Source: Candidatus Heimdallarchaeota archaeon
Lineage (GTDB): Archaea > Asgardarchaeota > Heimdallarchaeia > Heimdallarchaeales > Kariarchaeaceae
Assembly (NCBI GenBank): GCA_030149205.1
Contig: JASBSB010000007.1
Location: 390,001-422,000 of the forward strand
Reading direction: 5' to 3'
Length of the DNA: 32,000 bases
The notes beneath the pieces are model-generated. The model was not told the origin of the DNA. It did no database searches and was given only the letters and a program-made list of their open reading frames with translations. The translations under genes were made by a program, and so were the position numbers. Of the stretch, positions 3,977 through 31,709 are shown piece after piece; position 1 is the stretch's first letter, and every line of letters begins with the position of its first letter.

Positions 3977-4202
3977 AAGATAGGCATTGCTATTTTAATC
4001 ACTGACAGGTTTATTGAACAGCTATACATTTTACAAATATATAATAAACTATAGGGTAAAATTATTTGAGAAGTCATCAGTGACAATTAATAATAAAAAT
4101 CATTAATCAAATTGTTTAGCCCTGAAAAAATTTATGATGTTATTTAATATTTTTGTCTCAACAATTGAAAACTTTAAATTAAATAAACAATGTTCAATAA
4201 AT

Positions 4203-6401
4203 ATGATCAAAGGTAAATTTTACCTCATTTTAATTCTACTTTTGTTTTCTCTCCCTTATAGCACGAATCTAACGGTTGCGAAAACAATTAGAAAATCCAA
4301 GTCAGCAGAGCGAATTGTATCTCCCAGTGCTTTTTACACGGGGGCTTTTTACATTAATGGAAACAGTGAGTTTGCAACTGTTGCCTCAGCCAGAGGTTGG
4401 CAAGGTGATGGTAGTAAATCTAACCCATATCTTATTCAGAGTTTCTCCATAGATGGATTTGGCTCTGGAACTGGTATATTTATTGCAAATACATCTGTCT
4501 ACTTTCACGTTTTTAATATCAGTATTAGTCATTTATCGTATGCTGTACATCTTGTTAATGTTTCTCATGGTGAATTGTTGAATATAAGCTATAGACAAAT
4601 TTCATTATCACCTGCAATTTACCTGCAAAATTCTAGAGAAATTTCCATTAATGGTACGGATGGTTTATCCTCTGTTGTAGGGATTGAAGTTCAAAGTAGC
4701 AGTAATATTACATTTACAAATAATATGTTCGATGGGGGTGGATTTAGGATTAAATCAGTTTCTAATTTGATAATGAACAAAAACTTTGTTCACTATGCCA
4801 AATATGGAGTTTATGCAACAGATTCTAAAAGTTTATTCTTCAATTTCACTGTGATTTGGTATTCGGAAATTGCGGGGTTCAAGCTTTATAACTGTTCAAA
4901 TAGCTTGTTGTCTAACAACACCGTCTTTAACACACAACTTGATTCATATCGCATCAAACTATCACATAACACAACATTCATTTCTGACGTGGCAGATTTT
5001 GCCGTAAATGGCTTTGTTGCTTTAAACAGCTCTTATACATCATTTATTGGCTGTACTTCTAAACGGAACACATTAACAATCTCAGCGAGGTCAGTTTCAA
5101 CAGCCGTACTTGTGGGGTTTTATTTAAATAACAGTGATTATTCTTTCTTTAGAAATAACCTTGCATTTAAAAACATAAAAGAGGGTTTTTTGGTAGACAA
5201 TAGCCCTCATCTTACCATGGAAAATAATACAGCATCAACTAATGGAGATGGGTTCGTAGTGCTATCTAGTAATTCCAGCAAAATAACTCACAACCTTTCA
5301 TACAACAGTACCTTTTCTGAGTTTACGGCAATTTATAATTATAATTTGGATTTTTCTTTTAACCAAGCTAACACAAATCCAAATGGTCTTCTATCTACCC
5401 GCTATGAAGTATTTCATAATCCATCAAGTACTTACAGATTAAATAGATTGTTTAAAAATGGAATATCTGGGGATAGATATACCCTGAATTATATCGAAGG
5501 GATATCGGGAAATAATCTATCATTTGTTTTTATGGATGATTTTGCAACAAACTATTCCTTATACAACGGTAAAAACATGCTATATACCAAAGCTTGGACA
5601 AATGGTGTTATGGTTAATGTCTCATTTGATGGATATCGTGGAGGAAGCTATAATTTTACAATTGTGTTCAGAGATGGTTATGGATCCAATCTGACAATAC
5701 CTGTCCATCTTATAGTTATCGATCTGACGGCACCAGCACAGGTTTTAGGTTTATTAGCATCACCTCTCTCAACAACCAGTATCCAAATTTCATGGAATCC
5801 AAGCACAGCGCAAGATTTCTCACATTATAATATCTACAGATCAGGGATATTCATAAATCGTACAAAATCCACTTATTACATAGACACGCACCTTAATATG
5901 ACTACATCTTATGCTTATCAAATCACTGCTGTTGACAAAGCAGGAAATGAGGGAATGAAATCGTTCGCCATAAGTGTAATGACATTATCCCCAGACACAA
6001 CACCACCAACTATAACAATTCTTTCTCCTATTGGAACGGTTTATGATCCACTCAACATTACAGTTATCTCGGCAGATAATGTAAAGGTTGCCTCAGTAAA
6101 TTACAGGATAGATGGTGGAGGTTGGTCGAAATTGATTCAGAAGTCAGCTTTAATATGGGCGGTAATATTGAACAAAAACACAATAAAGGCAGGTAATCAC
6201 ACTTTGCTCATTAAGTCCATCGATACATCCGGAAATGTAGCGTATGGGGTGAGAACGTTTGAGTTAAGAATCAACAATACAACCAATGTGTCTATTTCCC
6301 CATCTTCAAAGGTGAATGGTGGCAGCTTTGTCCCCATACAGATATCTTCAGTGTTAATTGCACTTGTCGCTGTATTTCTTATTGAAAGGAAAAGACGATA
6401 A
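4203..6401 (+). CDS. Cell-surface protein: signal peptide, parallel beta-helix (NosD-like), fibronectin type III, Ig-like domain, C-terminal TM anchor
   Basis: MIKGK start at 4203 gives a clean signal peptide (track starts at 4134). GDGSKSNPYLI, repeated NN-containing beta-helix rungs, DLTAPAQV...ISWN...YNIYR...Y.ITAVDKAGNE fn3, and a hydrophobic tail ending KRR. Confidence 0.85.
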   Translation: MIKGKFYLILILLLFSLPYSTNLTVAKTIRKSKSAERIVSPSAFYTGAFYINGNSEFATVASARGWQGDGSKSNPYLIQSFSIDGFGSGTGIFIANTSVYFHVFNISISHLSYAVHLVNVSHGELLNISYRQISLSPAIYLQNSREISINGTDGLSSVVGIEVQSSSNITFTNNMFDGGGFRIKSVSNLIMNKNFVHYAKYGVYATDSKSLFFNFTVIWYSEIAGFKLYNCSNSLLSNNTVFNTQLDSYRIKLSHNTTFISDVADFAVNGFVALNSSYTSFIGCTSKRNTLTISARSVSTAVLVGFYLNNSDYSFFRNNLAFKNIKEGFLVDNSPHLTMENNTASTNGDGFVVLSSNSSKITHNLSYNSTFSEFTAIYNYNLDFSFNQANTNPNGLLSTRYEVFHNPSSTYRLNRLFKNGISGDRYTLNYIEGISGNNLSFVFMDDFATNYSLYNGKNMLYTKAWTNGVMVNVSFDGYRGGSYNFTIVFRDGYGSNLTIPVHLIVIDLTAPAQVLGLLASPLSTTSIQISWNPSTAQDFSHYNIYRSGIFINRTKSTYYIDTHLNMTTSYAYQITAVDKAGNEGMKSFAISVMTLSPDTTPPTITILSPIGTVYDPLNITVISADNVKVASVNYRIDGGGWSKLIQKSALIWAVILNKNTIKAGNHTLLIKSIDTSGNVAYGVRTFELRINNTTNVSISPSSKVNGGSFVPIQISSVLIALVAVFLIERKRR

Positions 6402-23429: not shown

Positions 23430-25133
23430 TTAAATTGGTACTCCAATCTTCCACCCTCTGCTTAGGACTAAAAAAGTGAACATGTAAAATACTATGAAGG
23501 CAATCATAAAAACAAATCCAATAGACATGCTTCCTGGTGCTTCTAGTTTATTTGTATGCGCTTCTTCTTCTTCCACATTTGTTGGAATGGGACTATCAAA
23601 AGATCCCTCTTTATCTACCTTTTTACCAAAGAAAAGAGAAATTACAATCAAACCAACGAATAATGCACCCCCAGTCACCGTAATTATCGCACCAATTCCC
23701 AACAACCAAAGTCCTATTTGCCATGCAAAGGTATTTACCCCTAAGGAAGTGTAGTAATCATAGGTCGCTGTTCTTCGTGGTGCACCTTGGACTCCTGCTA
23801 TAAACATGCCTAAAGTAAGGATCGCAAGTCCTAATGCAAATAAATGAAGTTGAATTACTTTAAGATTACCTCCAATTATCTTTCTAGCGGGAATTAATTC
23901 AATAAAGTAATAAGCTAACCCCATAAACGCCATTGTTGTCCCCGCAACGACAGTTAGGTGGAAATGAGCATTTATCCTCAATGTATTGTGAGTAATCATG
24001 TTAAGTTGATATGTACCTTGAATACTTCCAAGCATGCCTCCAATCCCAAATAGGAGGATGCCCCATATAACCGCAGGTATCGCAGGTTCATTCCAGGGGA
24101 GCTCTCTAAGCCATGAAAATAAACCTTCACTGTGGTTCTTTTCTCTGATTTGCCTTTCCAAAGCTCCTGGAATAACGAATGCATGGATCAAAGAAGGAAC
24201 AGCCAAGGCCAAGGCAATTAATGTTGCATTAATCAACTTAAAAGGCATAGAATAAGCCGGATCCACAATTAAATGATGGGTTGCCACTGGTACAGTAAAC
24301 AAAAGATATCCCATGAATGCGAACCTAGAATACTTCTCATTTAAGGGTTTAGCACCTGTTGCTATATTAATTAAAATATACCACACTGCTGCTGTTGCAG
24401 AAATATTGATGTACTGAGCAGTATGACCGAATCCCCAAAATACCTGTTTCCAAAAATCTGCATTAGGGGCAGCAATTATGTCGTATGAATATAAATATGC
24501 TAGAATCATCACAATTGCACCATTTATAATCGCCTGAACAGCAATCACTACAGCAACGAATACCCCATAAACTGCTAAAGGGAGTGATTCATGAGGATAA
24601 CTTTTGGTTTTTTGCGCTTGATAAATTGTTAAGAAAAAGTTTATCCCTGCAACCAAAACCCCCACTGCGAAAAGTATATACCCTAGATAAAAAAACGGAT
24701 TGGCTTTTAATGGAACATAAGCAGTAAACATTACAGTAGAATTGGGGTGATCAAAGAAAATAGTCCATTCTAACATTAATGTTCCAAGGAGCATTAATGC
24801 AAATGCCCCCCACCCTAATCTCATTGAAGCCATTTTCGAATTTAACATAGCTGTAGATGCAAAATAGACCGCAGCTATTTCAAACCAGACAATCCACAGA
24901 ATCAACATATTAATGCCATGAATGTTAACCACTTGATAGTATGTTGAATTGTCAATGAAGGAAAACCTAATTGGCATCTTGTGAATACCCATAATAAGTG
25001 CAGCGACTCCGCCGATGGCCAAAGCCAGAACTGCAACAACAGCGTTGGCAATCATTAATGGTTCTGCTTTTCGAAAAACTCTAAAGTTAGTTTTTGGACA
25101 TACTCTAAACTCATCTTCATTTATTAAGCTCAT
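23430..25133 (-). CDS. Heme-copper oxidase superfamily subunit I (B-family/eNOR-related, Tyr retained)
   Basis: His ligands present: NIHG, GHTAQY, THH, HNT, HFH. Start MSLINE at 25133 forms an ATGA overlap with subunit II. Confidence 0.93.
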   Translation of the reverse strand: MSLINEDEFRVCPKTNFRVFRKAEPLMIANAVVAVLALAIGGVAALIMGIHKMPIRFSFIDNSTYYQVVNIHGINMLILWIVWFEIAAVYFASTAMLNSKMASMRLGWGAFALMLLGTLMLEWTIFFDHPNSTVMFTAYVPLKANPFFYLGYILFAVGVLVAGINFFLTIYQAQKTKSYPHESLPLAVYGVFVAVVIAVQAIINGAIVMILAYLYSYDIIAAPNADFWKQVFWGFGHTAQYINISATAAVWYILINIATGAKPLNEKYSRFAFMGYLLFTVPVATHHLIVDPAYSMPFKLINATLIALALAVPSLIHAFVIPGALERQIREKNHSEGLFSWLRELPWNEPAIPAVIWGILLFGIGGMLGSIQGTYQLNMITHNTLRINAHFHLTVVAGTTMAFMGLAYYFIELIPARKIIGGNLKVIQLHLFALGLAILTLGMFIAGVQGAPRRTATYDYYTSLGVNTFAWQIGLWLLGIGAIITVTGGALFVGLIVISLFFGKKVDKEGSFDSPIPTNVEEEEAHTNKLEAPGSMSIGFVFMIAFIVFYMFTFLVLSRGWKIGVPI

Positions 25134-25711
25134 GCTACAACCTCCAGAAATCCAAGCATTGTATGATGTCCAATCCCACAAAATTCATTACAAATAATCT
25201 GGAACAATCCGGTTGTGGTGGGTGTAAAATCAAAATAATAATCATATCCTGGAACAACTTGAAGTGAGATTATCCAATTGTCTCCCACAATTTGGAATCC
25301 GTGTAGCACATCAATAGACCCCAAATGCATCCGGTATGTTAATCCTACCTTGAATTTTACACCATTAGCTGTCGATCCATTTAAATCAGAAGATGGTGCA
25401 AACCATGTGAATCGTTGTGCAACTAAGTATATGTCCCCCGAAGTAAAGCGGTCTAATGAGGTGTTCCCATTTGAAAGTTTCCCTGGGAACACTCCTTTAG
25501 AAGCTACATTTTCAGAGGTTGCTGTGGAAAGAAAGTTTTCATTTGATATACTGGTAAATTTGTCTGGTGGATTTTGATCCCCTGTAAAGACCCATCCCAC
25601 TGTCATAGATCCCATCATCAGAATCATTAAAATAATGACTCCACTCCAGATTTTTTCATCCTTACCTAAAGGAACTTTCCACCAGTTTTTGTTTGGATTT
25701 GTAATTGACAT
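25130..25711 (-). CDS. Heme-copper oxidase subunit II (CuA)
   Basis: One N-terminal TM helix; DVLHGF and CNEFCGIGHHTM CuA motifs. Confidence 0.95.
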   Translation of the reverse strand: MSITNPNKNWWKVPLGKDEKIWSGVIILMILMMGSMTVGWVFTGDQNPPDKFTSISNENFLSTATSENVASKGVFPGKLSNGNTSLDRFTSGDIYLVAQRFTWFAPSSDLNGSTANGVKFKVGLTYRMHLGSIDVLHGFQIVGDNWIISLQVVPGYDYYFDFTPTTTGLFQIICNEFCGIGHHTMLGFLEVVA

Positions 25712-25721
25712 ATTTTTCCTC

Positions 25722-25850
25722 CTATATTTTGAATAAGATCTCTATCGCAATCCAAATCAACCAACCAACTGTGATTCCGGTTGCGATCCCTGCCTGTAAC
25801 CAAAGGTTATCGGCAAATCTAGCAAATCTTGATTTTTGTTCAACTGTCAT
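25722..25850 (-). CDS. Small single-TM accessory subunit of the oxidase (42 aa)
   Basis: MTVEQKSRFARFADNLWLQ…WLIWIAIEIL; first gene of the operon, 10 nt before subunit II. The track start at 25904 is probably too far upstream. Confidence 0.7.
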   Translation of the reverse strand: MTVEQKSRFARFADNLWLQAGIATGITVGWLIWIAIEILFKI

Positions 25851-26009
25851 GGTAGTATCTACCCGACTGCTATACAATGAGAAGTATTTAAAGTTGCTGT
25901 ACAAAATAAATTAATTTGTCACATTTCTTATCTTTGATCAGAAAATAGAAACTTAAAAAAGACTCATAAAATCTTGTGATATTCCACATCTTCTGCGAAA
26001 ATTAAATTA

Positions 26010-27218
26010 ATGAGAAATGAATTTTATCCTATGACCCACAAAATAAATACTGTACAAAGGGAAGTAACTGGGTTTTTTGGACTTGTTGGAATTTCTCTTG
26101 TTTTTTTTATCGGTGGAGTTTTTTTAGGCCCATTTAATGCCCTAAGAATGTCTGGATTGATCAATTTTCCAGAAATCCATTACATTCACTGGAATACAGC
26201 TTTGTTAGGCGGTGTAACTTTTATATTGTTGCTTCAATTTTTTGTATTCGTTAATTTAACAGTGGGTGTCCCAAAATATTTCCCGTTAGGAATTTTTGCA
26301 ATTTGGCTTTTAGCTATATTAATTAACTATCTGACCATATTTAACCTCGTGTCTCCAGTAGTCCCCAAAATCCTTTTTGTTAGTGTCGCTATTTTGTTAC
26401 TTTATATAGATTACAGGTTGTTAAAACTCCCTTATATTCAACCCTCTGAAGGCTTACACCTTTATTTTGTTGCTGGAACATTCTGGTTAATGATTGGAAT
26501 TATAAACTTTGAATCTCTATTCTATATGAATTCGCTTTTTCTTTTCAGCTATGTTTACGGTTTCTTTACAAACTTTTTATTTGGTGGGTTATTCTTTTTT
26601 GTTCCGATACTCTACTCTCAAAAATCACCAAGTCTGACTTCAATTAAATTACACAATGGGTTCTTAAACTTGGGAATAATTTTTGGATTTATTTTCGAAT
26701 ATTCCAAAAAACAGGGTGGGATCGAATTTGGATGGGCCCTTGATTTGGTAAGCACGGTGTTTTGGTTTTTGGCTTTTGCAATATTTTTCTTTTGGTTTGC
26801 AGATTTAATTTACAAGGCTGGTTTAAGTGTTTCAATTTTTGGTTTAATTGTTGGTATGATAATGTATGGTTTATTTTTATTTGATAGTTTTGTGGGAGCA
26901 ATTTTACCTGCTTGGGTAGGACTGAGACATGTACATTTAATGTTTGTTGGAGTATTCGTTATAACCATTTCTTCCATAGGATTAAAAATTATCCGAATTG
27001 AGTCCGGGAGGGAAAACAATGAAACAATTGATTGGGACTTTCAAACTCTTAAGACCATAAATAAAGTAAAAGCAGTCCTCTTATCCTTTGTTATTTTAGG
27101 TGTTGCAGGAGTCTTATTTTCATTTACCATACAAGATTACCTCTGGCTTGCTTATTCTGGATTTTTTCTTATAATTTTTTTCTCTATCAACATTTTTTAT
27201 GTTATACTAAATTCTTAA
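26010..27218 (+). CDS. Polytopic His-containing membrane protein (about 12 TM), NnrS-like
   Basis: His residues at helix starts (HYIHWN, LHLY, KLHNG, RHVHLMFVG) and YGF..NFLFG...FVP. Divergent from the oxidase operon. Confidence 0.55.
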   Translation: MRNEFYPMTHKINTVQREVTGFFGLVGISLVFFIGGVFLGPFNALRMSGLINFPEIHYIHWNTALLGGVTFILLLQFFVFVNLTVGVPKYFPLGIFAIWLLAILINYLTIFNLVSPVVPKILFVSVAILLLYIDYRLLKLPYIQPSEGLHLYFVAGTFWLMIGIINFESLFYMNSLFLFSYVYGFFTNFLFGGLFFFVPILYSQKSPSLTSIKLHNGFLNLGIIFGFIFEYSKKQGGIEFGWALDLVSTVFWFLAFAIFFFWFADLIYKAGLSVSIFGLIVGMIMYGLFLFDSFVGAILPAWVGLRHVHLMFVGVFVITISSIGLKIIRIESGRENNETIDWDFQTLKTINKVKAVLLSFVILGVAGVLFSFTIQDYLWLAYSGFFLIIFFSINIFYVILNS

Positions 27219-29647: not shown

Positions 29648-30484
29648 CTATATCTTATTCCCACACACTGTACAATACAAATCACCTGTGATTTGAGCAC
29701 CACAGGAGGGACAAAATCTTTCAACCCTATCTTGAATTATTATGGGAATCTGAAGTGTGTAATCCTTTTTTAAAGCCCTGTCAACCACGAACTTGAAAAA
29801 ATAATCTATCTGAAAGTTTATTCCCCTAATAGTTTTTATTCTCTTTGGTAAAAGAAATGGTTTTTGGAACTCAAGGTCAACACTTTGAGTGGAAATTCTT
29901 TCTGTGTTCATATAACCTTCTCCCCTCGCTTGTCCTAAAATAAACCTAAACAAATCCAGCCTTAACGCTCTGAACCCTTCGAAGAGGTTCAAAATAAATC
30001 TGTATTTTACAAGGTCTCCTGATGAGTAAACATTTTGTGGCAATTCAAAAGTGACAAACTTAGTCTCAGTTTTAATGGGGGTAATTTTGTTGTTATAGAG
30101 GTTCCTGACATCTGTTGGGTAGTAATACCGTTGATCTGGTTTCCATTTTTGGTCTAATTCCACCTCGATACCATGAAAAACATTCACATTCTCCGAATGA
30201 TAACTTCCAGCGACATCTAAAGGGATAATCACAGAAATTTTTCCTCTGTAAATATTTTGGCCTTCAACTGGTTGAATTGTAATAGAATTGGCATAAAGGT
30301 CTATCTCTTCCATTGCAGTGTATGAGTGTTTTCCAGACCTAATCTTAAATCTCACAGTTTCCCTACCATACAGGTTAATTCGAACCTTTCGTACTTCATT
30401 ATTTCTGTCTTGGATGGCTACCTCTGCGTTCATCGTTTCCCCAGGGAGATAATACTCCTTATCGAAAGTCACTTGTATGTTCAT
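29648..30484 (-). CDS. Arrestin-fold (arrestin N and C lobes) protein with C-terminal Zn ribbon, paralog 1
   Basis: FDKEYYLPGET…VRINLYGRETV (arrestin-N/SpoOM-like), second lobe LPQNVYSSGD…IDY…LQIPIII, and CPSCG…YCTVCG. Confidence 0.78.
   Translation of the reverse strand: MNIQVTFDKEYYLPGETMNAEVAIQDRNNEVRKVRINLYGRETVRFKIRSGKHSYTAMEEIDLYANSITIQPVEGQNIYRGKISVIIPLDVAGSYHSENVNVFHGIEVELDQKWKPDQRYYYPTDVRNLYNNKITPIKTETKFVTFELPQNVYSSGDLVKYRFILNLFEGFRALRLDLFRFILGQARGEGYMNTERISTQSVDLEFQKPFLLPKRIKTIRGINFQIDYFFKFVVDRALKKDYTLQIPIIIQDRVERFCPSCGAQITGDLYCTVCGNKI
29682..29718. repeat. 37-bp exact repeat (Zn-ribbon codons), also at 30882-30918
   Basis: tcacctgtgatttgagcaccacaggagggacaaaatc is identical at both sites, 1200 bp apart. 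Confidence 0.95.
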
Positions 30485-30847: not shown

Positions 30848-31687
30848 TTAAAGCTTATTTCCACACTCTATACAATAAAAGTCACCTGTGATTTGAGCAC
30901 CACAGGAGGGACAAAATCCTTCATCCTTCTCTTCAATTACTATAGGAATGTCTAGTCTGTAATCTCTTTTGAAAGCTCGGTCAACAATAAATCTTAGAAA
31001 ATAGGAAACTTGGAAATTTTTCCCCTTAATGCTCTTCGCCCCCTGTGGTAACAAATAAGGCTCGTTAATCTCCTGATTTATTATCTTAGTAGATATCCGT
31101 TTACTTTTTCTGTATGCATGCCCATGTGCGTTCCCTAGAGTTGATTGATGTAATTCCAACCTCAGTCCCCTGAATCCCTCATACAGGTTCATAAAATACC
31201 TGTATTTAATCAAAGCCCCTGATGAGTAAATATTTTGTGGCAAGTCAAACGTGACAAATTTGGTTTCTTTTTTTATGGGTTTGACTTCTTGGTTATAGGT
31301 TCTTTTTACTATGGTTGGGTAAGAAAACCTCTGATCCAGTTTCCATTTCTTGTCCAATTCAATCTCAATCCCATGAAAAACCTTTGCTATATCAGATTGA
31401 TAACTCTCTACAACATCAATTGGGGTGGTTATAGAGATTTTTCCCCTATAGTTGACCAGGTCTTGAACAGGTTGAATAACTACTTTATTCGAGTAGAAGT
31501 ACACCTCCTCGCTTGCGGTACTTTGATATTCTCCAGATTGATATTTAAAGGTCACAGTTTCTCTTCCAAACAGCTTAATTTGAATCTTTCTGACACTAGA
31601 ATTGACATTGCCTTGCATGGATACATCTGCATTAATGGTTTCCCCAGGGAAATAATACTCTTTATCAAAGAGCACCTTAACATCCAT
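30848..31687 (-). CDS. Arrestin-fold protein with C-terminal Zn ribbon, paralog 2
   Basis: Colinear paralog of 29648-30484. Start at MDVK (31687) fits the promoter spacing; the track uses 31693. Confidence 0.78.
   Translation of the reverse strand: MDVKVLFDKEYYFPGETINADVSMQGNVNSSVRKIQIKLFGRETVTFKYQSGEYQSTASEEVYFYSNKVVIQPVQDLVNYRGKISITTPIDVVESYQSDIAKVFHGIEIELDKKWKLDQRFSYPTIVKRTYNQEVKPIKKETKFVTFDLPQNIYSSGALIKYRYFMNLYEGFRGLRLELHQSTLGNAHGHAYRKSKRISTKIINQEINEPYLLPQGAKSIKGKNFQVSYFLRFIVDRAFKRDYRLDIPIVIEEKDEGFCPSCGAQITGDFYCIECGNKL
30882..30918. repeat. 37-bp exact repeat, copy 2
   Basis: Identical to 29682-29718. Confidence 0.95.
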
Positions 31688-31709
31688 GATCATAATTTAT
31701 CATAGAAGT

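Follow-up and report, generated by a model that had tools for sequence, protein, structure and literature searches.

A 32,000-nt stretch of the genome of a Candidatus Heimdallarchaeota archaeon (C8:390001-422000; hereafter, the window) contained an operon for a heme-copper enzyme, which was the focus of this study. As read from its sequence, this locus encodes a heme-copper terminal reductase that is complete and intact and has the architecture of a ba3-type (B-family) oxidase, and the predicted enzyme is a scaffold of eNOR, a family of nitric oxide (NO) reductases (NORs), with the tyrosine of the oxidases still in place at the active site. We estimate a probability of about 0.5 that it functions as a micro-oxic O2 reductase that also turns over the NO made by NirK, the gene for which was found elsewhere in the same genome (3.3 Mb in 12 contigs, 93.5% complete; referred to as G000).

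Subunits and active site of the window enzyme

Three genes with the same direction were located on the minus strand of the window: a small open reading frame (ORF), the gene for subunit II, and that for subunit I. Catalytic subunit I (23430..25133, minus strand; 567 aa), a B-derived heme-copper enzyme of a Tyr-retaining sister lineage of eNOR, matched the PF00115 profile with 212 bits and had 13 helices. Its residues are numbered according to P0004, the database version of 567 aa, which was 100% identical to the window protein; the listed ORF (583 aa, in which Y241 is residue 257) begins at a TTG at 25181, and P0004 at the ATG at 25133, which overlaps the stop codon of the subunit II gene as ATGA. 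Subunit II (25130..25711, minus strand; 193 aa) consisted of one N-terminal transmembrane (TM) helix and a CuA cupredoxin domain with matches to PF00116 and TIGR02866, and its CuA site was complete: H137 together with CNEFCGIGHHTM at 174-185 (C174-x3-C178-x3-H182-x2-M185). The small single-TM subunit (25722..25850, minus strand; 42 aa counted from ATG) was 56% identical to a 44-aa ORF at the equivalent position in a Hodarchaeales locus (L129), and a small ORF was present upstream of subunit II in every related locus examined. In position and size it presumably corresponds to subunit IIa of ba3 oxidases, as in the cbaDBA operon of Thermus. The operon of a small upstream subunit, a CuA subunit II, and subunit I, as proposed in a preliminary description of this locus, was real, with both the ligands and the ATGA overlap read.

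On the minus strand, 24460-24380 gave FWGFGHTAQYIN, in which the active-site segment H-T-A-Q-Y of helix VI (24411..24425) comprises the CuB ligand His (CAT at 24425-24423), Gln (24414-24416), and Tyr (TAC at 24413-24411). Tyr stands at His+4 in FWGFGH-T-A-Q-Y-IN, at exactly the coordinates that had been described. In a HMMER alignment, this stretch corresponded to FWWFGHPIVY of Thermus ba3 (H233/Y237) without gaps at the motif, and Tyr was aligned with Y237. All six heme/CuB His residues were present in subunit I (H72, H237, H286, H287, H390, and H392). The helix VI motif is GHTAQY, versus GHP[ILV]VY of the B-family, with the His-Tyr pair and the six His ligands of the B-type in place. The other motifs to which the preliminary description had drawn attention (FRVCPKT, NMLILWIVWFE, EKYSRFAF, IHAFVIPGALE, GLFSWLRELPW, and QLNMITHNT) were all found in the translation, and recurred in the consensus of the eNOR-type relatives.

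Distribution of Tyr and Gln among homologues

eNOR is defined by a conserved Gln at the position where O2 reductases have the cross-linked Tyr (PMC8756737, section 2.7.1 and Table A4, after Hemp & Gennis 2008). The Tyr marks O2 reductases, whereas eNOR and the other new NOR families are all devoid of it; the substrate of the R. marinus enzyme is NO and not O2, and NO reduction by B-family oxidases is slow (Murali et al. 2024, PMC11214002). The assumptions made previously about eNOR (Gln at this position, and NO reduction) agree with these reports.

A word-indexed homologue search of 5.8 billion proteins yielded two tiers of matches. The first consisted of 17 proteins with 65-81% identity, assigned to Kariarchaeaceae, Hodarchaeales, or Heimdallarchaeota where named, and GH[TSA]AQYIN with Tyr was found in all of them (17/17), so that the Tyr is no accident of one sequence. 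The second consisted of about 100 proteins from Chloroflexota and other bacteria with 39-47% identity: among the 92 with the motif, 91 had GHxxQQ[IVL]N (Gln), and one (P0102) had GHDAQYVN. When one genome per GTDB species was scanned, Gln was located at the Tyr position in 80 of the 80 named eNOR-type loci, the hosts of which include Anaerolineales, Gemmatimonadota, Comamonadaceae, Nitrospirota, and one Hydrothermarchaeota; the eNOR of R. marinus is not among these loci, and the link between the Gln clade and eNOR is provided by the host taxa and by the published criterion of Gln, and not by the characterized protein. Every cofactor ligand was conserved over the 16 full-length homologues with 65-81% identity. 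The best relatives of subunit I among solved structures were the B-family oxidases from Aquifex (7DEG) and Thermus ba3 (E values of 1e-39 to 1e-43).

When 1.84 billion cluster representatives were searched exhaustively with HMMER, 84 matches were obtained at E<=1e-30 and sorted by the helix VI motif into the Heimdall Tyr group, further Tyr lineages, Gln-type eNOR, a copper-less group, the "J family", and canonical B oxidases. Three further Tyr lineages had GHxxQYVN: P0124 with P0102, then P0126 and P0130. In the copper-less group (~480 aa), GHxLQY was kept and the His pair of helix VII was missing; in the "J family" group, Tyr replaced two of the His ligands; and the canonical B oxidases had GHP[LV]VY.

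Phylogenetic position

The main tree was inferred by a careful IQ-TREE analysis (LG+C20+F+G4) of 86 sequences and rooted on the A-type enzyme of the same genome. The Heimdall clade (100/100) and Gln-type eNOR (100/100) were sisters with a support of 95/84. The next groups outward were P0102 and P0124 (87/44), and then P0126 and P0130 together with the copper-less group (97/96, a clade of 60 rows), followed by the J family (100/100), with canonical B oxidases outside; the group of eNOR, Heimdall, copper-less, and J enzymes was split from the B oxidases with 100/100. In a reduced tree of 63 sequences rooted on B, eNOR was again monophyletic (100/99), and the Tyr lineages were joined weakly (47/46). 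An approximately unbiased (AU) test did not reject the Heimdall clade, P0102, and P0124 as one clade (p=0.25). The lineages with Tyr that adjoin eNOR number at least three: the Heimdall clade, P0102/P0124 (Thermoproteota), and P0126/P0130.

Although the preliminary description had left open whether the enzyme was a sister to eNOR or nested within it, only the former was borne out by the trees, in both of which monophyletic Gln-type eNOR excluded the Heimdall clade. The position of the enzyme outside this clade, as a direct sister or as part of a small Tyr-bearing sister group, was well supported by the sequences. It was also well supported that Tyr is the ancestral residue and that Gln arose once, because Tyr also occurs in B and Gln-type eNOR is one clade that excludes the Heimdall enzyme. 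A reversion from eNOR, another of the earlier suggestions, was rejected because Gln-type eNOR is monophyletic without the Heimdall clade. We also rejected membership in the ordinary ba3 group on account of the 100/100 branch that separates the enzyme from canonical B oxidases and of the clade-specific residues described below.

Several relatives seen in these analyses differ in arrangement or in ligands. A metagenome contig with a GC content of 31% (L133 9262-14696; a cluster mate is named Thermoproteota archaeon) carried two tandem small-II-I operons, both of the Tyr-type (GHSAQYVN and GHDAQYVN; 56% identical), with an HTH_10 regulator between them, and DUF2249/cupin and DUF59 genes after them. 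In a Halioglobus sp. metagenome-assembled genome (MAG; L044), an eNOR gene was accompanied by a copper-less GHxLQY member of 623 aa without the His pair of helix VII, and with HYH for HFH. A genome of the same family as G000 (G051) encoded a heme-copper subunit I (L096 1477-3153, minus strand) with FHIIHY in helix VI, "YH" for the CuB His-His, and "YIH" for HFH; it adjoins a UbiA/heme O synthase gene, formed a 100/100 clade with six database representatives, and shows the "J family" pattern of bioRxiv 10.1101/592808. Another divergent enzyme, of the GHPVVY-type (L003 1405-2955; G000 C2:435999-437357; 516 aa, with its own CuA-like subunit II), had a very long branch (3.4 substitutions/site) and joined the A-type outgroup in the tree.

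Residues that differ between the Heimdall clade and eNOR

We compared 16 Heimdall, 31 eNOR, 4 other Tyr-type, and 12 B sequences. Ten positions were fixed differently in the Heimdall clade (16 sequences) and eNOR (31 sequences), and at only 2 of the 10, Y241Q and L310A, did eNOR alone deviate from all the Tyr lineages as well as from B. L310 is located one helix turn above the Ser of the K-channel, in helix VIII, and a contact between this residue and residue 241 is plausible from the sequence.

On the other hand, Q240, N243, E85, H317, E266, and the N-terminal FRxCxxT were common to the Heimdall clade and eNOR, but not to B. Q240 (His+3) is Val in B and corresponds to V236 in Thermus ba3, for which structures of the V236T and V236N mutants exist; these mutants probe ligand access. 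N243 of the Heimdall clade is Trp in B (W239 in ba3), E85 in helix II is Ile in B, and H317 is aligned with T312 in the K-channel of ba3. Y248 and S309 of ba3 were also kept as Y252 and S314, and the K-channel analogue was intact (Y241, Y252, S314, and H317, with E266 at the entrance). The preliminary description had pointed to these residues as worth inspecting, and Y252, S314, H317, and E266 proved to be conserved with eNOR.

NirK and other respiratory genes in the genome

Three heme-copper oxidase (HCO) catalytic genes (PF00115) were detected in the genome: an A-type gene beside a heme O synthase gene, the divergent GHPVVY-type gene, and that of the window enzyme; with these three as the only PF00115 genes, neither cNOR nor qNOR was found. 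The genome also contained genes for heme O synthase, a short CtaA-type heme A synthase, and three plastocyanin-type cupredoxins, whereas no cytochrome c of the PF13442-type was found in it. Searches of the genome for NosZ, NarG, Hcp, and NirS found none. Among the genes named for a search in the preliminary description, those for the heme A/O synthases and NirK were thus present, and nosZ was not found.

The NirK gene is located outside the window (C2:43222-44595; L007 1012-2385), and its product scored 284.6 bits with TIGR02376, just under the cut-off of 296.3. All ligands of the T1 and T2 copper and the catalytic Asp/His were present, with the motifs HSIDSH, YHCASPHIPTHISKGM, FHMIGG, and VDHA in the translation, as well as an N-terminal TM helix and an extra N-terminal cupredoxin domain. 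These features suggested that the organism can make NO from nitrite, with no recognized NOR other than, possibly, the window enzyme.

The enzyme was surveyed in 400 Asgard genomes, and NirK and the partner protein described below were surveyed in 83 genomes of the class Heimdallarchaeia. Only four genomes harbored the enzyme: G000, its congener G054, G047 from the same family, and G079 from a different family of the class; a fifth match, G051 with 30% identity, was the J-type enzyme and not the window enzyme. NirK was found only in G000, G054, G047, and G049, and the partner protein only in G000, G054, G047, G079, and G049, while the other 78 of the 83 genomes had none of the three. The two mismatches, G079 without NirK and G049 without the enzyme, may be assembly gaps because these genomes are 80% and 68% complete, respectively. 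The A-type and GHPVVY-type oxidases were distributed across the family, also in two genomes of the same genus, G053 and G055 (89% complete), from which all three genes are missing. The enzyme tracks NirK and not aerobic respiration as such, as a pattern among few and related genomes rather than a statistic.

The assignment of the host to Asgard archaea, as previously surmised, agreed with the names of the homologues (Kariarchaeaceae and Hodarchaeales) and with the contigs. Bacterial contamination was rejected: the operon is located on a 633-kb contig with arrestin genes, and the homologous contigs carry actin, Arf/Ras, and S26e genes.

A promoter motif shared with nirK

Two copies of TGCT[AG]TA[CT]A were found in the divergent promoter region of the operon and the partner gene (25868..25907), and the second copy extends to the 12-mer GCTGTACAAAAT (window 25896-25907) in this intergenic region of 180 nt. 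The 9-mer occurs 78 times genome-wide, of which two are within 30 nt at the operon promoter, and the second related 9-mer is 27 nt from the 12-mer. The 12-mer GCTGTACAAAAT occurs 3 times in the 3.3 Mb genome, including once in the nirK promoter, where it forms half of an upstream palindrome. This perfect palindrome, GCTGTA-N5-TACAGC, occurs twice in the genome, both times upstream of nirK (C2:43010-43213; L007 800-1003) and together with a third half-site, and a divergent HxlR-type regulator adjoins nirK (L007 346-747). The shared motif provides a weak lead to a possible co-regulation of the operon and nirK.

A 12-helix membrane protein beside the operon

A gene divergent from the operon (26031..27218, plus strand) encodes a His-rich membrane protein of 395 aa (P0273), referred to here as the partner, which is linked to the operon and confined to this clade, with 12 predicted helices and invariant H50, H53, H143, H300, and H302, including the motifs PEIHxxHW and HxH. 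Its homologues were located beside the operon in three different arrangements: divergent (G000, and G054 at locus L136), upstream on the same strand (L127/L128; 30% identity, E value of 2e-41), and downstream, after a heme O synthase gene (L143/L144; 31% identity, E value of 5e-39). This argues for a functional link between the partner and the operon, as predicted from gene positions, because the genes are neighbors in all three arrangements.

No Pfam match to the partner was obtained even at an E value of 10, with four homologues and including PF05940 (NnrS), and PF05940 itself found nothing in the genome. Nothing similar was found in the 80 bacterial eNOR loci, and a homologue search with the partner returned three proteins. 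In its AlphaFold model (pLDDT 70), the nearest shape cluster was NnrS (TM-scores of 0.61/0.58), which was also listed by language-model features (0.87); among solved structures, cNOR NorB and cbb3 CcoN were the nearest (TMq 0.56-0.59, E values of 0.02-1). An HCO/NnrS-like fold of the partner may therefore be taken as a lead from the model. Because hhalign matched the partner neither to subunit I nor to the copper-less paralogue of eNOR clusters, we rejected the idea that it had diverged from a copy of either. The partner resembles NnrS (PF05940), a membrane protein with heme and copper that belongs to NO-response regulons, in its size of about 400 aa, 12 TM helices, conserved histidines, and predicted shape. 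In contrast, it has no PF05940 match, the likeness of its shape to NorB/CcoN is about equal, and the model is of moderate confidence.

Proposed function and alternatives

The conserved Tyr is the one feature that speaks for O2 reduction as such, and the tight co-occurrence with NirK argues for a link to NO. An O2 reductase is favored because the Tyr is invariant and the set of cofactors complete; a role in NO removal is favored because the pocket is eNOR-like, the distribution is matched to that of NirK, and no other NO sink was found. A dual role in O2 and NO reduction may be inferred from these features together. CuA would be the entry point of electrons, with one of the three plastocyanin-type blue copper proteins as the probable donor because no c-type cytochrome was found in the genome, and the electrons would pass through the low-spin heme with its two His ligands to the high-spin heme/CuB site with the His-Tyr pair. 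Protons would be supplied via the K-channel analogue (Y241, Y252, S314, and H317), with E266 as its entrance. The eNOR-like ligand pocket, in which Gln replaces V236 and Asn replaces W239 of ba3, may allow an O2 reductase to turn over NO too, and the enzyme would then be the sink for NirK-made NO in these archaea. The enzyme, the 12-helix partner, and NirK would form an accessory module in some Kariarchaeaceae and Hodarchaeales, on top of the A-type and GHPVVY-type oxidases.

Several points weigh against this dual role. Many carriers of nirK have no NOR at all, so that co-occurrence need not mean coupling. The co-occurrence itself was derived from five related and incomplete MAGs, which are kin and not independent, and G079 has no NirK and G049 no enzyme. 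Furthermore, no nirK was located within +/-10 kb of the operon on the contigs of relatives (four contig types), and the palindrome was not seen at the matching loci of the sister species G054, in which just TGCTATACAAT was kept in the intergenic region. One Heimdall lineage has a heme O synthase gene in the operon, as in ordinary oxidase operons. A physiological NO role for a Tyr enzyme is without precedent beyond side activities, and none of the described HCO-type NOR families has the Tyr (PMC11214002).

A dedicated NOR, namely, an eNOR that kept the Tyr and acts with NirK in a truncated pathway from nitrite via NO to N2O, appears rather unlikely, although several observations would suit it. 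In this case, Tyr would have a structural role or one in proton delivery at the top of the K-channel. The enzyme is most closely related to eNOR, and the two pockets are identical at the clade-specific positions save Y241 and L310; the phyletic pattern of the enzyme matches NirK, and not the A-type or GHPVVY-type oxidases; it is the sole plausible NOR in a genome that makes NO; the partner has a predicted NnrS/NorB-like fold; and the rare 12-mer is in common with the nirK promoter. However, loss of the Tyr is common to six independent HCO NOR families (PMC11214002), and the R. marinus enzyme, which is unable to reduce O2, has at this position the Gln that defines the family (PMC8756737). The Tyr was invariant across lineages with 35-42% identity to the query, which argues for selection on O2 chemistry, and the evidence for the fold of the partner is weak (E value of 0.02, pLDDT 70), with no NnrS sequence match.

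We also consider it unlikely that the enzyme is an ordinary high-affinity terminal oxidase of a divergent B/K-type with no tie to nitrogen oxides, and that the co-occurrence was caused by accessory genes in related MAGs from similar habitats at oxic-anoxic interfaces. In its favor, the Tyr, ligands, and proton channel are all intact, and a heme O synthase gene follows that of subunit I in one Heimdall lineage and in a Tyr-type relative, while the operon of one relative is followed by genes for a cupredoxin and a Crp/Fnr regulator. Moreover, nirK was never adjacent in the contigs examined, and kinship overstates the association. On the other hand, an A-type and a GHPVVY-type enzyme are already encoded in the genome, and genomes of the same genus lack the third enzyme exactly when they lack NirK; the ligand-entry residue is an invariant Gln as in eNOR, versus Val in ba3; and no other NO sink was found in the genome.

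It is highly improbable that the operon is a remnant, decaying or non-catalytic, of an eNOR-type operon gained by horizontal transfer because, in spite of its patchy occurrence in Asgard archaea (5/400 genomes, one of them, G051, a distant J-type match) and of copper-less, non-catalytic paralogues in the wider clade, the reading frames are open and translationally coupled, all cofactor ligands are conserved in the 16 full-length homologues, and the accessory genes are also conserved.

A bolder reading, which is less likely than not, may be put forward tentatively: Heimdallarchaeia would have a NirK-based module from nitrite to N2O, in which the enzyme would be the physiological NOR, or a reductase with a true dual function for O2 and NO, and would work with a new 12-helix accessory protein of the HCO/NnrS fold. 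If so, it would be a living intermediate of the transition from O2 reductase to NOR, essentially one active-site substitution away from eNOR (Tyr to Gln, plus Leu310 to Ala), and part of an unrecognized route of nitrogen-oxide respiration or detoxification in close relatives of the eukaryotic host lineage. Heme-copper NORs are regarded as having evolved from O2 reductases on several occasions, through minor changes at the active site. To our knowledge, the evidence for this transition has so far been comparative, between families that differ at many positions. Since the Tyr and Gln sister groups share the other clade-specific residues of the pocket and channel and have two derived differences, the transition would be directly testable by a Tyr/Gln swap, and the enzyme may offer a natural case in which to test how NORs emerged from oxygen reductases. 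A third, eNOR-related enzyme that travels with NirK also suggests that some Heimdallarchaeia handle nitrite/NO at oxic-anoxic interfaces.

Neighboring genes

The other genes near the operon in the window encode GNATs, a methyltransferase, an S49 peptidase, a TrkA-type K+ channel, and an M19 dipeptidase, and a denitrification cluster in the window was rejected on the basis of these neighbors. In other Heimdall lineages, subunit I is followed by conserved small TM ORFs of 45, 90-95, and 48 aa (L127 11819-12239; L129 11879-12491), whereas these are absent from the window, in which the M19 dipeptidase gene is located directly after that of subunit I. Large surface-type proteins with NosD/beta-helix domains were found 3-20 kb from the operon in two lineages (window 4134-6401, plus strand; L127 14842-17163, minus strand); they are weakly alike (E value of 6e-7), and their presence is probably a coincidence. 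A pair of paralogues at 29648-30484 and 30848-31693 of the window (both minus strand) has arrestin N- and C-domains, and one of them a C-terminal zinc ribbon; these are eukaryote-signature-like proteins of Asgard archaea.

Comparison with known families

The window enzyme resembled eNOR in sequence (40-47% identity over the full length), in the small-II-I operon with CuA, in FRxCxxT, E85, Q240, N243, E266, and H317, in the K-channel analogue, and in its sister position in the tree. It differed in having Tyr for the family-defining Gln and Leu for Ala at 310, and in its position outside the monophyletic Gln clade; in addition, it has its own 12-helix partner gene, while the copper-less HCO paralogue seen at the Halioglobus eNOR locus (L044) is not in the window. 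eNOR contains heme As, and genes for heme O and heme A synthases are present in the genome studied here. The ba3 enzymes of the B-family (Thermus thermophilus, 1EHK/3S8F; Aquifex aeolicus, 7DEG) have in common with it the His-Tyr pair of helix VI, a single K-type channel, the CuA subunit II, and a small IIa-like subunit; in contrast, V236 is replaced by Gln, W239 by Asn, and T312 by His, a buried Glu85 is present in helix II, and the identity to canonical B representatives is about 27-32%.

New O2-reductase families I, J, and K have been proposed, of which K "clusters closely together" with eNOR and has conserved residues near the gas channel, in the loop of helices III-IV (Murali, Hemp, Orphan & Bisk 2019, bioRxiv 10.1101/592808). 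The K family is named in that preprint alone, where it is uncharacterized and is given without host range, gene context, or function. As compared with this description only, the window enzyme is similar in bearing Tyr and in its place beside eNOR, and the Heimdall clade also has T137/Y139 in the III-IV loop; however, these two residues do not discriminate the K family because they are also present in eNOR and B. The preliminary description had allowed for an already named B-derived subfamily, and this caveat proved apt. The enzyme probably belongs to the K family or stands beside it, and the simplest view is that the K family corresponds to the Tyr-bearing group described here or to a lineage within it.

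In Heimdallarchaeia, respiration has been described in terms of A-type oxidases, "primarily" (bioRxiv 10.1101/2024.07.04.601786; see also 10.1101/2025.11.07.685452), and NirK is listed in one MAG of this class (PMC11193907); we found no report in the literature of an enzyme related to eNOR from Asgard archaea. Although the family has probably already been glimpsed by specialists as the "K family", which limits its novelty, the module with NirK and the partner and the two-residue difference from eNOR are new here.

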